Shown here in pieces: positions 4,655 through 43,372 of a DNA stretch of 64,000 bases. Source of the stretch: Dehalococcoidia bacterium (GTDB lineage: Bacteria; Chloroflexota; Dehalococcoidia; E44-bin15); assembly GCA_041649635.1 (NCBI GenBank), contig JBAZMV010000001.1, positions 281,197 through 345,196 on the forward strand, in the 5' to 3' direction. Below the pieces are notes generated by a model that was not told the origin of the DNA, did not search any database, and saw only the letters and a program-made list of their open reading frames with translations. Positions within the stretch are counted from its first letter, which is position 1. Each line of letters begins with the position of its first letter. The position numbers and the translations under genes are program-made.

Positions 4655-5431
4655 ATGAATAAATATCTAAACGAAAAAAACATTAAAGACTACTGGGAGA
4701 AATGCACCCCGATGAGCTTCGCGGCCGAAAAGTGGAGCTATGAGCAGAAAAGGGAATTCAGATATACTTTGCAGGATTATATGCATAGCTCGTTTGGATT
4801 TGGTGAATGGTCGGGTAAAGAGGTGTTGGAAGTAGGTTGTGGATCGGGCGTGGATGCTCTGGAGTTTGCCAGATATGGAGCAAAAGTTACAGCTACTGAT
4901 ATGACCGACAACGCCGTTAACCTCACAAATCAGATGGTAAAAGAAGCGAAATTGCCTGTCAAAGTGATCCAAGCTTCTGCAATTAACCTGCCGTTTCCCG
5001 ACGCCAGTTTTGACTGTGTCTATAGTTATGGGGTATTGCATCATATACCTGATATCGAAAAGGTGCTGTATGAGATAAAAAGAGTTATGAAGGAAAACGC
5101 ACAGCTGCTTGTCATGCTTTACCATAGAGATAGTCTTCTACATGCATATAGTATTATCTATCGCCACGGTATAAAGAGTGAACTGCTCTCGAAAGGTGTT
5201 TGTACAGAGCAAGATTTGGTTTCTAAATACTCAGAGCGCATAGAGGGATGCCCTTACACAAAGGTATATACAAAAGAGGAGGCTCGGGCTCTGTTTTCAA
5301 GATATTTCAATGATGTTGACATCACTGTAAGGTACAATGTTATAGATACCGATAAACAGAGAAAGGTAAAGTTCAAACTATCTGACGAATGGGAGCTCGG
5401 CTGGCACTTAATATTGAAAGCAATGAAGTAG
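4655..5431 (+). CDS. Class I SAM-dependent methyltransferase
   Basis: Motif I LEVGCGSGVDA, with VTATD and YSYGVLHH blocks. Confidence 0.6.
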   Translation: MNKYLNEKNIKDYWEKCTPMSFAAEKWSYEQKREFRYTLQDYMHSSFGFGEWSGKEVLEVGCGSGVDALEFARYGAKVTATDMTDNAVNLTNQMVKEAKLPVKVIQASAINLPFPDASFDCVYSYGVLHHIPDIEKVLYEIKRVMKENAQLLVMLYHRDSLLHAYSIIYRHGIKSELLSKGVCTEQDLVSKYSERIEGCPYTKVYTKEEARALFSRYFNDVDITVRYNVIDTDKQRKVKFKLSDEWELGWHLILKAMK

Positions 5432-28532: not shown

Positions 28533-28603
28533 GCAGTGCCCCGTTTTTAAGCTCTAACCCTTGGTGTTATACTAAGATAGAATCGACTTAAGTACTGAAT
28601 ACA

Positions 28604-28697
28604 AAAGAGGTGTCCTTCCAGTACTGGAAGGACCGGGGGAAATCGGGGGTGTTCCCCGACCCACCGTTCCCCCAAGATTGGGGGTTAGGGGGTTGAA
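28604..28697 (+). repeat. Structured intergenic repeat, copy 1 (most divergent)
   Basis: AAGAGGTG; hairpin TCCTTCCAG-TACT-CTGGAAGGA; CCGGGGG..GGGGTGTTCCCC; TTCCCCCAAGATTGGGGG; GGGGGTTGA. Lies between miaA and hflX. Confidence 0.6.
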
Positions 28698-28891
28698 CTT
28701 CATTTTGAAATATATACTTAAAAACCAAAGTCACAAAAGACAGTCATGATAAAGAGTTAACGAAGAAAAGAATAAAATACTTAACATAAGGTAAGAAGAT
28801 AGCTAAAAAATCGCGCATATACGACACAGACCCCCCGAACAGCAAACGGCAACTCCACCCGACATGGCCGTCGCATGAGAAGGCCTTCCTC

Positions 28892-32257: not shown

Positions 32258-32322
32258 CTATCGTCTATTGAACCGGTGGGCTTCCATCGCTGTACCGAAT
32301 GCTATTCCAATATAGAAGTGCC

Positions 32323-32413
32323 GAGAGGTGCAGGATACTTCCTGCCGGGGTTTTAGGGGTGTCCCCTAATTCTTTTACATTTCCCCCAAGATTGGGGGAT
32401 AAAAGGGGGTTGA
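32323..32413 (+). repeat. Structured intergenic repeat, copy 2 (immediately upstream of ssrA)
   Basis: GAGAGGTG; CAGGA-TACT-TCCTG; CCGGGGTTTTAGGGGTGTCCCCTAATTCTTTTACATTTCCCCCAAGATTGGGGGATAAAAGGGGGTTGA. The 3' TTGATT, 17 nt and CTAATA could serve as the ssrA promoter. Confidence 0.6.
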
Positions 32414-32440
32414 TTTGCACAATCTGCATTCTCTAATATC

Positions 32441-32788
32441 GGGGACGAGTGGTTTCGACAGAGTTGGAGTGCTCCAGGATTGCAGGCCGAGCCGCCATTA
32501 ACTCGTAAAACTGGTGGCAAAAAAGTAACTGACAAAGAATTCGTCTACGCTAGCTAAGCGCTGACACACCACCCGACTTTCACCCGGCGAACGAGGGCTG
32601 GTGACGATTAGCCGGGATGCGGCGAGCGCAACGCCGATAGCGTCCGCCAAAGTAAAAACTCGGCTGGTTTGGGCATGCGCGGCCGACAGTGCATGTTCAG
32701 GCGAGAAAACAATCGCCGGCTAAGCTTGTAGTACATCCGGAGTTGGACTTCTCTGGACGGGGAGTTCGACCCTCCCCCGTCTCCACCA
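32441..32788 (+). ncRNA. ssrA: Transfer-messenger RNA (tmRNA)
   Basis: 5' GGGGACGAGTGGTTTCGACAG (acceptor/D-like). 3' T-arm GGAGTTCGACCCTCC and acceptor CGTCTCC-A-CCA pairing with the 5' GGGGACG. An internal short ORF ends ...EFVYAS-TAA (candidate tag). smpB is adjacent. Confidence 0.8.
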
Positions 32789-32798
32789 GACAATTCGA

Positions 32799-32835
32799 GC
32801 CTCTGTTTTTATAAAATCAGGGGCTCTTTTGTTAT
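32799..32835 (+). terminator. Intrinsic terminator downstream of ssrA
   Basis: GAGCCTCTG-(12 nt)-CAGGGGCTC hairpin followed by TTTTGTT. Confidence 0.55.
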
Positions 32836-32977
32836 CCCCATATAAAAAGACTCGCCCGTCGAAATAAACCGCTCTAATCAAAGAAAAAGGCAATGCAGTA
32901 TTGACATTATTGATTTTTATGGTATTATATATTAAGAATATTAATTATCAACTCAAAAATATTAATGGCGGTGAAAA

Positions 32978-33340
32978 ATGGCTCAAGAATGGCAGAAGCT
33001 GACAAAGATGACCCAGGGCAAACCGGTAACGGTCGAACGTGTTCGCTTGATTGACAGCGACATAGCTATCGAGGGCAGCTTTACGCTCCCGCCTCTGGCC
33101 AACCTGCCGGCGGAGGACCAGGTCTTTGTTATAACCTTCGTCCGCTGTCACGGCTCCATCAAGGAGATGGAGGAGATGTTCGGCATAAGCTACCCCACCG
33201 TGAAGAACCGGATCAACCGCATCGCCCAGCAGCTCGAGCTTGTCGAAACCGTGGATGTCCTGCCCGTCGAAGAAGTGATCGGCGAGCTCGAGAACGGGAA
33301 GATATCGGCCGACGAGGCCATAAGGAGGTTATCGAAATGA
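32978..33340 (+). CDS. DUF2089-family protein (HTH), zinc-ribbon cysteines lost
   Basis: IEGSFTLPPL...FVRCHGSIKEMEEMFGISYPTVKNRINRI matches the DUF2089 core (recalled). The N-terminal CxxC pairs typical of the family are absent. Confidence 0.55.
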   Translation: MAQEWQKLTKMTQGKPVTVERVRLIDSDIAIEGSFTLPPLANLPAEDQVFVITFVRCHGSIKEMEEMFGISYPTVKNRINRIAQQLELVETVDVLPVEEVIGELENGKISADEAIRRLSK

Positions 33341-33615
33341 ATCGACCACCCGTCTGGATACGCATTAAAATTCAGGGAGAACGAGGGGGTTTCAGGCTGT
33401 GGTTGCCGCTCTTTCTGCTGCTGCCGCTGGCGCTGGTAGTCCTGATCATCCTCTCGCCATTAATACTGATCGCCGTCATTGTTCTTTGGCCCAGCGGCTG
33501 GGGAAGATGGGCGCTGGCCGTCCTGAGAGCCGCCTACAACGTATTGTGCTCAATACGCGGCCTTAAGGTCGATATCCAAAGCCGCCGCGAAACCGTGTAT
33601 ATCTCGATACAATAA
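33337..33615 (+). CDS. Small hydrophobic membrane protein
   Basis: 92 aa with one or two TM helices. 4-nt overlap with the DUF2089 gene. Confidence 0.35.
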   Translation: MNRPPVWIRIKIQGERGGFRLWLPLFLLLPLALVVLIILSPLILIAVIVLWPSGWGRWALAVLRAAYNVLCSIRGLKVDIQSRRETVYISIQ

Positions 33616-33641
33616 TAAATATCAATGAGGAGGATACTTCC

Positions 33642-34085
33642 ATGTCTGAGAATAGAAAGAAGATACTGGAGATGCTGGCCGAGAACAAGATAAGCGTTGA
33701 CGATGCCTATCGCCTGCTTAATACTATCGATTCCGCGGAGGGCGGACGGGAAAGCACGCCGAAATCGGGAACGGCGGTTAAGGACAAGCCTAAATATCTG
33801 CGGGTCACTATATTACCCGATCCCGAACACGAGAAAAGCCAGGATGTCGATCGCGTCAACGTGCGCGTGCCCATGTCGCTGCTGCGCGCCGGCATCAAGC
33901 TGACCTCACTGATTCCCACCGAGGCCAGGGAAAAAGTAGACGGGGCGTTGAAGGACAAAGGCATCGATTTCAACACGCGTAATATGAAGCCGGAAGACAT
34001 TGAGGAGCTTATCGAGTCTTTAAGCGAGCTTGAAGTAGATATAGTTAGCAGCAAAGGGGAAAAGGTAAAGGTTTTTGTCGAGTAG
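33642..34085 (+). CDS. Hypothetical protein with N-terminal SHOCT-like motif
   Basis: KILEMLAENKISVDDAYRLL N-terminus with RBS GGAGG upstream. The same ISxDEA motif ends the DUF2089 protein. Confidence 0.4.
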   Translation: MSENRKKILEMLAENKISVDDAYRLLNTIDSAEGGRESTPKSGTAVKDKPKYLRVTILPDPEHEKSQDVDRVNVRVPMSLLRAGIKLTSLIPTEAREKVDGALKDKGIDFNTRNMKPEDIEELIESLSELEVDIVSSKGEKVKVFVE

Positions 34086-34093
34086 AGAATTAT

Positions 34094-34166
34094 TCGACCC
34101 TCCCCCACCTCCACCAGAAATAAAAGAGCCTCTGGCTTTATGTAAACCAGAGGCTCTTTTGTTATG
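34094..34166 (+). repeat. Degenerate direct repeat of tmRNA 3' end plus terminator (att-like remnant)
   Basis: TTCGACCCTCCCCCACCTCCACCAGA matches ssrA 32765-32790 at 24/26 nt. It is followed by GAGCCTCTGG-(11 nt)-CCAGAGGCTC and TTTTGTTAT, like the ssrA terminator. Confidence 0.6.
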
Positions 34167-38925: not shown

Positions 38926-38962
38926 AAAGATGACTATATCGCCACATCTGGCAATAGTAAGA

Positions 38963-39052
38963 AGAGGTGCAGGAGATTTTTCTCCTGCCGGGGTTTTAGG
39001 GGTGTCCCCTATTTTTTAGAGTCCCCCAAGAATGGGGGATACAGGGGGTTGA
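38963..39052 (+). repeat. Structured intergenic repeat, copy 3
   Basis: AGAGGTG; CAGGAGA-TTTT-TCTCCTG; CCGGGGTTTTAGGGGTGTCCCCTATTTTTTAGAGTCCCCCAAGAATGGGGGATACAGGGGGTTGA. Lies between acsB and acsD. Confidence 0.6.
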
Positions 39053-39118
39053 TAACCTTCATCTATCAGTTCCATAATTAATGCATCCGTAACTCTCGAA
39101 CCGTAAAGGAGAAGATAC

Positions 39119-42186: not shown

Positions 42187-43110
42187 ATGTTCATACCTAT
42201 CGGCGAATGCATTCATATTATCAATAAAGAGGTCAGGGCCGCCATCGATAATCGCGATGCGGACTTCATCCGGAAACTGGCCATTAAGCAGGTTGACTGC
42301 GGGGCTAAAATGCTCGACCTTAACATCGGCCCGCAGAAGAAGGCCGGGCCGGAGATAATGGACTGGATTGTCAACGCCGTTCAGGAGGTCGTTGACGTTC
42401 CGCTGTCGCTGGACACGACCAACGCAGAGGCCATCGAGGCCGGGCTTAAAGTTTGTAAGCGCAAGCCTATCATCAACAGCACCAACGCCGACCCCAAGCG
42501 AATGAGCGTGCTGTTCCCCCTCGCCGCTAAGTATGATGTAGGCATCATTACGTTGACGCTTCGCGCCACCGGATTGCCCGTCAGCGCCGACGAGCGGGCT
42601 CAGATACTGGTCGAGGACCTGCTGCCCGCGGCCGAGGCTGCCGGACTGCCGATGCAAAATATCTACGTCGACCCGCTGGCTATGACGGTGAACGGCACGC
42701 AGGAGCACGCGCCCGAGGTGCTACAGACAGCACTGGTGGTTAAATCGATAATGGAGCCGCCGCTGCATATGACCTGCGGGCTCTCCAACGTCTCCAACGG
42801 CGCCCCCGCCGACGTGCGCAAGGTGCTAAACCGCGTCTACTTAGTAATGCTCATGGGTGCCGGCATGGATACAGCCATACTCGATCCGCTGGATAAAGAG
42901 CTGATGGACACGATCAGAATCCTGGAGAACCGCGATGATTCGACCCCTGCAGGGAAAGCATATTTAGCCCTGTATGACGCCTGTGCCGCGGGCGATGAAT
43001 TCGACACATCGATACTCGACATGAGCGATGCCAAACAGGCCGAGCTGGCCAAGACCGTCGCGATACTGAATAACAAGATGATCTACGCCCACAACTACCT
43101 GCAGCTATAA
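42187..43110 (+). CDS. acsE: Methyltetrahydrofolate:corrinoid iron-sulfur protein methyltransferase
   Basis: Pterin-binding TIM barrel. IGECIH, LDLNIG, INSTNA and GLSNVS blocks parallel Moorella AcsE (recalled). Confidence 0.85.
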   Translation: MFIPIGECIHIINKEVRAAIDNRDADFIRKLAIKQVDCGAKMLDLNIGPQKKAGPEIMDWIVNAVQEVVDVPLSLDTTNAEAIEAGLKVCKRKPIINSTNADPKRMSVLFPLAAKYDVGIITLTLRATGLPVSADERAQILVEDLLPAAEAAGLPMQNIYVDPLAMTVNGTQEHAPEVLQTALVVKSIMEPPLHMTCGLSNVSNGAPADVRKVLNRVYLVMLMGAGMDTAILDPLDKELMDTIRILENRDDSTPAGKAYLALYDACAAGDEFDTSILDMSDAKQAELAKTVAILNNKMIYAHNYLQL

Positions 43111-43146
43111 CCCTCACCCTGACCCTCTCCCCTGCGGAGGGTGAGG
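43111..43146 (+). terminator. Putative intrinsic terminator after acsE
   Basis: CCTCACCCT...AGGGTGAGG inverted repeat directly after the acsE stop. Confidence 0.4.
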
Positions 43147-43267
43147 ATAATAATCGGTGGGTTACACTATCGTTAAACCCACCCTACGATTCTATAGGCG
43201 ACTTGGATTCCGGCCGGAGTTTATCCCGTACACCGATGCGGGACCGGAATGACGGCGACGTTGAATA

Positions 43268-43360
43268 GGGTGTGCAGAGGGTCTTCCCTCTGCCGGGGTT
43301 ATAGGGGTGTCCCCTAACTTTTTTTATTTTCCCCCAAGAGTGGGGGATACAGGGGGTTGA
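43268..43360 (+). repeat. Structured intergenic repeat, copy 4
   Basis: GGGTGTG; CAGAGGG-TCTT-CCCTCTG; CCGGGGTTATAGGGGTGTCCCCTAACTTTTTTTATTTTCCCCCAAGAGTGGGGGATACAGGGGGTTGA. Lies between convergent acsE and mutL. Confidence 0.6.
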
Positions 43361-43372
43361 TTAAGTTCACAA

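Follow-up and report, generated by a model that had tools for sequence, protein, structure and literature searches.

The 64,000-nt stretch of DNA analysed here (the window: Dehalococcoidia bacterium, assembly GCA_041649635.1, contig JBAZMV010000001.1, positions 281,197 to 345,196 of the forward strand) carries four copies of a structured, non-coding intergenic repeat that recurs in many Chloroflexota genomes. We consider that these copies probably belong to a new family of structured mobile repeats, ~95–125 bp in length and secondarily co-transcribed, which resembles miniature inverted-repeat transposable elements (MITEs) and bacterial interspersed mosaic elements (BIMEs). The evidence consists of (i) the multicopy distribution of the element, (ii) insertion polymorphism at orthologous sites, (iii) terminal inverted repeats (TIRs) and target duplications of ~5 bp in one subfamily, (iv) the lack of linkage to any gene family and (v) structural covariation in two hairpins, P2 and P3. 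The element is dispersed and insertion-polymorphic and is not a locus-specific regulator. An earlier note on this DNA had described the four copies and proposed that they join a terminator for the upstream gene to a promoter for the downstream one. The finding is real and larger than that note could see, and the terminator-plus-promoter idea survives for individual copies only.

All four copies lie on the + strand, in a 15-kb part of the window, at the places and directly after the genes that the earlier note had named (NCBIfam, Rfam). Copy 1 (c1, 28602–28699) occupies the spacer between miaA and hflX, copy 2 (c2, 32320–32416) the spacer between smpB and the transfer-messenger RNA (tmRNA) gene ssrA (32441–32788, Rfam), copy 3 (c3, 38959–39055) the acsB–acsD spacer within the acs cluster and copy 4 (c4, 43264–43363) the spacer between the convergent genes acsE and mutL; all these neighbours are housekeeping genes (Pfam, NCBIfam). 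The window was scanned, with filters off, with a covariance model (R1) built from 43 family members. The copies score 67.7 (c1), 86.8 (c2), 101.6 (c3) and 94.8 bits (c4), compared to 16 bits for the next best score anywhere in the window, and the repeated, structured unit is real. The motif TCCCCCAAGANTGGGGG occurs four times on the + strand of the window (0.5 expected on both strands), and the 25-nt P3 motif CCGGGGTTTTAGGGGTGTCCCCTAA occurs three times at ≤1 mismatch (0 expected).

The alignment of the element across the four copies spans ~95 nt. Read 5′ to 3′, it has first a purine box, AAGAGGTG or GGGGAGTG, and then P2, a hairpin whose sequence varies. A G-run precedes the G5/C5 hairpin P3, a tract that changes from pyrimidine-rich to A-rich leads to the near-invariant hairpin P4 (C5-AAGAnT-G5), and a spacer of 2–8 nt separates P4 from GGGGGTTGA. 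These parts are found in c3 at 38962–38969 (box AAGAGGTG), 38970–38987 (P2), 38990–38993 (G-run), 38997–39011 (P3), 39012–39017 (T-run), 39023–39038 (P4), 39044–39048 (distal G-run) and 39049–39052 (TTGA). The corresponding positions in c4 are 43267–43274 (box AGGGTGTG), 43275–43292, 43295–43298, 43302–43316, ~43319–43325, 43331–43346, 43352–43356 and 43357–43360, and in c2 32323–32330 (box GAGAGGTG), 32331–32344, 32347–32350, 32353–32369, 32370–32382 (T-rich), 32383–32398, 32405–32409 and 32410–32413. The outlier, and the most divergent of the four, is c1: its box AAGAGGTG (28605–28612) is followed by a different P2 (28613–28632), the G-run (28635–28639) and P3 (28643–28659), the tract after P3 is C-rich instead of T-rich (28660–28668), and a 3-nt spacer separates P4 (CCCCCAAGATTGGGGG, 28669–28684) from the last G-run (28688–28692) and TTGA (28693–28696). 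The four stem sequences that had been listed for the first hairpin are correct. An AGAGGTG-like box, which had been assigned to every copy, does not apply to c4, and the conserved hairpin followed by a T-run is present in c2, c3 and c4 while c1 has CCGGGGGAAATCGGGGGTGTTCCCCGA and no T-run.

With 43 copies aligned, the covariation first noticed in four holds and becomes stronger. Standard pairs fill 93% of the cells of P2, P3 and P4, changes on both sides of the pair are seen at six of nine P2 pairs and four of seven P3 pairs, and the covariation score is reached by none of 500 shuffles and is lost when the pairing partners are slid. In P2, G.T outnumbers A.C by 14 to 2, with many cases of shared ancestry, a weak argument that the + strand is what folds, in single-stranded form; in P3, G.T has no such excess over A.C. 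Covariation of P4 is not judgeable in this set because the pattern used to search for copies fixed P4. In copies outside the search pattern P4 stays C5/G5 without covariation, which points to recognition of its sequence and not of its structure or shape.

The surroundings of P4 suggest a longer helix. Positions −10 to −7 before P4 are 69–88% pyrimidine and give way to an A-rich stretch. By register analysis, the bases adjoining P4 pair in 94% of copies, using four pair types, followed by an internal loop and, beyond it, by pyrimidine:G pairs in 80–86%; one locus (L054) has a perfect 10-bp extension of P4. The distal G-run thus probably pairs with the pyrimidine tract and makes P4 a long imperfect stem, a helix that we infer and that covariation cannot prove because the G-run never varies. 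Several other structures were rejected: (i) a helix between the 5′ purine box and the P3–P4 tract (−3.7 kcal/mol for both cognate and non-cognate pairings, p = 0.6); (ii) a closing stem, or inverted repeat, common to the flanks of all copies, given that cognate flanks at −15.2 kcal/mol are only slightly better than shuffled ones at −12.4 kcal/mol, a difference driven by a few subfamilies, with the stem absent in c3 and weak in c1; (iii) a G-quadruplex from the four G-runs, since ViennaRNA run with the G-quadruplex option retains the hairpins and the Clostridia version described below has two G-runs only; and (iv) slippage of the P4 C-run onto the distal G-run (probability ≤0.001). Coding of a small peptide was likewise rejected: there is no conserved open reading frame (ORF) in the element, the frame differs between copies and the indels between modules are not multiples of three.

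The family extends far beyond the window. The pattern CCCCCAAGANTGGGGGN{2,8}GGGGGTT, with ~0.5 random matches expected, was scanned over contigs of one genome per species and matches at least 120 stretches. Among the matches listed, the whole element is present, with more than 130 copies beyond the four of the window, in about 32 Chloroflexota species known from metagenome-assembled genomes (MAGs), mostly Dehalococcoidia, and at least 12 loci of MAG Uz-K9-09 carry it; a few further copies lie in bins labelled Bacteroidales, Planctomycetaceae and Calditrichales, which may be mis-binned. R1 gives 141 hits in 100 of the listed loci, ~29 of them outside the search pattern, and the search of Chloroflexi genomes that the earlier note had proposed as a check has thereby yielded many more copies. 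Copies outside the pattern have the P4 loop variants AACGTAT, AAAGTAT and ATGATT and sometimes an inserted extra hairpin, and some have GGGGGTTCGGA or GGGGGTTTGGA in place of GGGGGTTGA. P3 is missing from variants in L062, L076 and L133, and L148 has two 3′ modules in tandem; the element is modular. No Rfam 15 family corresponds to it: the tmRNA is the sole match anywhere in the window at gathering thresholds, and c1, c3 and one Clostridia copy, when scanned permissively, reach at best 15–21 bits (E = 0.2–10), compared to gathering scores of 34–97 bits. Text searches for the motif string and for repeat elements in Dehalococcoidia and Chloroflexi found no description, a limited search that does not prove absence.

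Comparison with relatives, obtained from a metagenome scan for AcsB with 10-kb flanks, reveals filled and empty sites. The element is confined to the closest relatives (61–78% AcsB identity), where its places differ. L144, although its synteny with the window reaches from miaA to past mutL, has a scoring copy at the c4 site only. The c2 site is empty in L144 and L146, where ssrA begins 16–17 nt after the smpB stop codon, the spacer being 183 nt here, and the c3 site is empty in L144, L145, L146 and L148, with an acsB–acsD spacer of 64–70 nt compared to 193 nt here; L146 and L148 have copies before acsB and after acsD instead. The empty spacers of the relatives are short and alignable; c2 and c3 are thus lineage-specific insertions, and c4 is older. 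At the c4 site L144 and L148 have a copy as well, with P2 and P3 sequences that differ yet remain paired: across the three lineages P3 reads TTAGGGG/CCCCTAA or TTTGGGGG/CCCCCAGA, and the P2 stems differ as well. The hairpins at this site have been maintained since insertion, through selection or through gene conversion. R1 finds no scoring copy between miaA and hflX of L144 (the c1 site), and the spacer is as long as that of the window. When window positions 28533–28891 are aligned to L144 4176–4516, the middle is ~50% identical to c1 (AAGAAGAAGTG.., CAAAGATGCAGGCTACCAG..); judged from this alignment, c1 may be a gain in the window lineage or L144 may hold a decayed copy. That the element is a dispersed repeat, present or absent at orthologous sites and with inverted repeats and target duplications in one subfamily, had not been considered in the earlier note.

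The signature of mobility is clearest in a subfamily recently amplified in MAGs Uz-K9-09, JL_US_03_9 and MAG-BB-17. Its 13-nt inverted arms, GAGACYGCTGAAA ... TTTCAGCRGTCTC, lie 122 bp apart in 22 copies, conservation ends exactly there, and the arms are never found as an empty palindrome. The arms are immediately flanked by direct repeats of ≥5 nt in 7 of 27 copies (26%), as opposed to 4% of 702 non-cognate pairings, and by repeats of ≥4 nt in 41% of copies, as opposed to 10% of controls; examples are GAGTA, TTTTT, AGTAA, TAATA, AAGGA, ACTTG and, in L102, GCTATG. Inverted arms with direct repeats are a hallmark of cut-and-paste or copy-and-paste transposition, here with a target duplication of ~5 bp. 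A palindrome-associated transposable element (PATE) derived from IS200/IS605, or another HUH-mobilised element, was rejected because the best-resolved subfamily combines inverted repeats with 5-nt duplications of varying sequence. Other subfamilies have different arms or none. No fixed insertion target is found in the left flanks. No protein family recurs near the element (the largest cluster, in 5 of ~120 loci, is metabolic), no RAYT (Y1 transposase) gene is among the neighbours in the 2–22 kb around each copy, and ordinary metabolic genes account for the ORFs that lie between inverted pairs or between distant arm matches.

The position of the copies relative to genes was determined from crude ORF calls. 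Chloroflexota-type copies are co-directional sense in 27 cases and antisense in 10, convergent in 9 and divergent in 10. A sense copy is usually no more than ~45 nt away from the upstream stop codon at its start, and about one third of copies have their downstream gene on the opposite strand. A riboswitch or other cis-regulatory leader was rejected on these grounds, as the downstream gene is often on the opposite strand and no gene family recurs.

Taken together, a MITE-like mosaic element would spread, or would have spread, by insertion into Chloroflexota intergenic DNA, presumably mobilised in trans by some transposase, and its hairpins would be kept because the + strand folds when single-stranded, as RNA or DNA. 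After insertion it may be co-transcribed with the upstream gene, usually in sense and near the stop codon, where it would form a 3′ structure (a partial terminator or stabiliser); c2–c4 appear to have gained a hairpin with a U-run here. Several points weigh against this account. In the window, c1 has only a weak TIR (its flanking inverted repeat, 28588–28606/28703–28721, is 74% complementary) and c2–c4 have none, and target duplications of the window copies are unreadable because the closest empty sites are ~20% diverged. The ~1.6 Mb of fetched loci contain no transposase or autonomous element with matching ends. Ordinary MITEs seldom keep an internal core with compensatory changes, MITE status leaves unexplained a 30-nt module that crosses phyla, and a functional RNA would likewise give a sense-strand bias and covariation.

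The latter explanation, which we consider unlikely although it is the main rival, proposes a functional structured RNA family, either a cis-acting regulator in 3′ untranslated or intergenic regions or a small RNA, in which function came first, multicopy spread was secondary and the P4/G-run/UUGA module would be the recognition site of a conserved host factor or target. It would account for the covariation of P2 and P3, the G.U-tolerant + strand pairing in P2, the pyrimidine:G pairing beside P4, the sense bias of 27:10 in co-directional spacers and the retention of the module across phyla. Conflicting with it are the antisense orientation of about a quarter of co-directional copies and the presence of the element in divergent promoter regions, the inconsistent neighbouring genes, the gain and loss of copies among close relatives, the TIRs and target duplications of one subfamily, a P4 stem that never covaries and remains C5/G5 throughout, as expected for sequence recognition, and the lack of any matching Rfam family.

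The cassette proposed in the earlier note, in which P3 and the T-run terminate transcription of the upstream gene and TTGA serves as the −35 box of the downstream gene's promoter, is very unlikely to be the reason for the element, and its two halves fare differently. In a consensus scan, P3 with the T-run is terminator-like in c2, c3 and c4, and on the minus strand P2 followed by ACCTCTTTT is terminator-like in c1 and c3, by which bidirectional termination would be possible at the convergent c4 site. The terminator half is supported only locally: c1, the orthologous c4 copies in L144 and L148, most family members and the family consensus (GCTTTAAAAGT) all lack the T-run, which is peculiar to the copies of this genome. 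Termination halfway through the acs cluster, at c3, would be costly. For the promoter half, a −10-like hexamer follows TTGA at a usable distance of 18 nt in c2 (TTGATT-18-TAATAT, 4/6), just 5′ of the tmRNA gene, and in c3 (TTGATA-18-CATAAT, 5/6), the only copy to pass the promoter scan (10/12 consensus matches); the spacing is 14 nt in c1, and c4 has no −10-like hexamer. Across the family the promoter half is not supported: such a hexamer lies 16–18 nt after TTGA in 6 of 101 Chloroflexota-type copies, compared to 2–10 at control offsets, and is not enriched. The earlier note was right that a pure promoter role cannot explain the convergent c4. In relatives, ssrA and acsD are expressed from element-free spacers, and because relatives without the element have the tmRNA gene 16–17 nt after smpB, the element is not needed for ssrA expression. 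We think that terminator, stabiliser or promoter effects are properties of individual copies and not the reason why the element exists. As a side observation on RNA gene neighbourhoods, the 3′ module in L034 (~5230–5262, Coatesbacteria MAG) ends 2 nt before a tRNA gene and c2 ends 27 nt before the tmRNA gene (window 32410–32441); this adjacency may be coincidence or a preference for the neighbourhood of tRNA-like genes.

The 3′ module (C5-loop-G5 hairpin, short spacer, GGGGGTTGA) is also found outside Chloroflexota. Among the matches listed, ~24 species of gut Clostridia MAGs (Acutalibacteraceae, Oscillospiraceae and others) carry a multicopy unit of another kind with the module at its end, at L030, L046, L055, L059, L092, L110 and other loci, with tandem copies in L059 and L092. 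This unit, ~110 nt long, comprises a TATATAGGAAATTGCTCGC..GAGCAATTT hairpin, an A-tract, ACCU, P4, a G-run and TTGA, with an intrinsic terminator behind them. The G-run is paired to the conserved ACCU(U)n box, and the 2–3 nt beside P4 covary (CG/CG, CGT/ACG, TG/CA). The terminator stem differs between subfamilies and covaries, and an upstream segment, in the A-tract, repeats its 5′ arm (GCGT, AGATTT, AGTGT), is complementary to the 3′ arm and varies between subfamilies in step with the terminator. Either a long-range closing helix or a local terminator can form. The arrangement represents a switch by alternative pairing or else a duplication of the target within a terminator stem. A −10-like box follows TTGAYA in 11 of 27 Clostridia copies compared to 1–5 in controls, at 18 nt in 30%. 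Both the covarying terminator with its complementary upstream segment and the enriched −10-like box speak for the functional RNA discussed above.

Single copies of the module are present in plasmids of E. faecium, E. casseliflavus and E. gallinarum, in B. pumilus pPL10 and in Photobacterium plasmids, pSYSA of Synechocystis has a variant, and in 13 Vibrio plasmids (rep_cluster_1874) the module is a conserved, unannotated non-coding element of the backbone; by chance, ~0.02 matches to the full pattern would be expected in the plasmid set. The plasmid modules lie at L240 2001–2030, L242 4001–4054, L243 4001–4053, L241 2001–2031, L224 2501–2528 and L226 213–241. Two microviruses (bajarodmic virus 206, L227 2436–2465; an IMG/VR microvirus, L015 ~2853–2882) have a perfect module on the coding strand, within the long intergenic spacer directly upstream of the replication initiator (Rep) gene, and their copies and those of Enterococcus have in common an upstream hairpin with a TTTCAACGA loop. 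In the gokushovirus-like L001, a variant (C5 hairpin, 13-nt spacer, GGGGGTTCAAT) immediately precedes the ATG start codon for a small basic protein (MRRRKMSRKK...), with its G-run placed like a ribosome-binding site. No module is found in E. coli genomes. A phage origin was rejected, as the module is confined to 20 of 2.9 million viral contigs, of which several are probably host DNA, and to one INPHARED phage record. Outside Chloroflexota, the module may reflect either the horizontal transfer of a very small element or a function held in common.

These occurrences could be read as a single-stranded DNA signal, in which the hairpin and TTGA(T) form the site of a replication, priming or HUH-type nicking enzyme and the chromosomal copies are miniature elements that use it. 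Consistent with this highly improbable reading, replicons with an ssDNA stage contain it: one module each is found in the rolling-circle plasmid pPL10 and, beside a coupling-protein gene, in a conjugative Enterococcus plasmid, the module precedes Rep on the coding strand in two microviruses and belongs to the backbone of 13 Vibrio plasmids, and adjacent chromosomal copies mostly have the same orientation. TTGATA also appears similar to the CTTG/ATA nick site of the pC194/phiX174 Rep group. The rarity of the module in viral contigs and INPHARED argues against a general microvirus origin of replication, TIRs with target duplications are unlike the products of HUH enzymes (IS200/IS605, IS91), the distance between hairpin and TTGA varies from 7 to 13 nt and no HUH gene lies nearby. 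It is also possible, though quite unlikely, that the module (C5-A-N4-T-G5 hairpin, 2–8 nt spacer, GGGGGTTGA, with a pyrimidine:G helix that probably closes it) is an autonomous functional motif, recognised by machinery that several phyla share. Such a motif may be a signal for replication, priming or nicking of single strands or an RNA element to which a conserved factor binds, and it may have been carried independently into the Chloroflexota MITEs, the multicopy, terminator-bearing Clostridia element, plasmid backbones (Vibrio, Enterococcus, Bacillus, Photobacterium) and the Rep-proximal spacer of microviruses.

Read as a mobile repeat, the element has counterparts in other phyla. Correia elements of Neisseria (CREE/NEMIS) are MITEs with structured, expression-active cores. 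The element resembles them in being ~100–150 bp long, non-coding, intergenic and present in tens to hundreds of copies, in its TIRs and short target duplication, here in one subfamily, in its insertion polymorphism between relatives and in terminator- and promoter-like motifs by which single copies can alter the expression of neighbours. It differs in that the target duplication is ~5 bp of varied sequence and not TA, the inverted repeats are 13 nt only and missing in many subfamilies including c2–c4, the interior consists of G5/C5 hairpins with compensatory changes, a 30-nt module is common to several phyla and no parent insertion sequence is known.

Repetitive extragenic palindrome (REP) elements, BIMEs and REPINs are mobilised by RAYT Y1 transposases, and REPs have been proposed to stabilise mRNA 3′ ends or act as terminators (PMC3333891, PMC3116915, PMC3733652). 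The element shares with REP/BIME sequences high-copy, GC-rich extragenic hairpins, often just 3′ of stop codons, the formation of mosaics with other repeat modules (c4 spacer) and hairpins kept through compensatory changes. In contrast to them, the alignment shows no GTAG/CTAC at the foot of P2, P3 or P4 and no CGTC tag, the unit is 95–125 nt with three or four different hairpins instead of a palindrome of 20–40 nt, TIRs with target duplications occur in one subfamily and no RAYT gene is among the neighbours. GTAG-tagged palindromes in the same MAGs (L041, L074, L083, L155) are separate units. A variable 5′ module joined to a conserved 3′ module, occasional module duplication (the L148 tandem), stable predicted RNA folds and an intergenic, non-coding location recall pneumococcal BOX. 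BOX, RUP and SPRITE are modular mosaic repeats. BOX has no sequence relationship to the element and belongs to another host phylum, and the 3′ module here is found in other phyla, plasmids and microviruses as well. Multicopy bacterial structured RNAs in Rfam are similar in length (~100 nt) and in having a conserved secondary structure with covariation, but none of these families scores meaningfully (15–21 bits).

Other repeats accompany the element. The c4 spacer is a mosaic of repeat families with at least two other modules, as in BIME-like arrays: a + strand hairpin at 43106–43152 (CCCTCACCCT.../...AGGGTGAGG) and a unit at 43156–43187 (GGTGGGTTACAC..CGTTAAACCCACCCTAC) that recurs in L155, together spanning 43106–43187. 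Hairpins of the CCTCTCCCC/GGGAGAGG type lie upstream of the element in L076, L096, L144 and L148. Repeat families often found beside the element (window 43106–43255; L155 2240–2540; L041, L074, L076, L083) include GTAG/CTAC-tagged palindromes (GTAGGGGCGCATGG..GCGCCC), GGTGGGTTACAC..AACCCACCCTAC, GGATTCC..GGAATGAC, CCTCTCCCC..GGGAGAGG, GCCCTGAGC..TCGAAGG and TCATTGCGAGC units. Elsewhere in the window, the last 26 nt of the tmRNA (32765–32790) are repeated 1.3 kb downstream at 34093–34118 with 92% identity, and a strong minus-strand terminator (34122–34160) lies just past the second repeat. The island between the repeats (32791–34092) contains three small ORFs (a DUF2089 helix-turn-helix protein, an unknown and a SHOCT-like protein), none of which has a match in the syntenic L144, while the third is matched in L145; it looks like a small integrated element or remnant at ssrA.

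Chloroflexota, including Dehalococcoidia, have compact genomes in which these repeats fill many short spacers, inside operons such as the acetyl-CoA synthase cluster and beside the tmRNA gene, where they can be mistaken for regulatory RNAs or may act as such. A covariance model of the family would clean up predictions of non-coding RNAs, provide a marker for strain-level variation in MAGs and flag sites where expression may differ between close relatives. A selfish repeat would not usually remain nearly identical between Chloroflexota, Clostridia, plasmids of Gammaproteobacteria and microviruses, as the 30-nt module does. If the module is indeed an autonomous motif, the repeats would be vehicles for a new functional motif and not plain selfish DNA.

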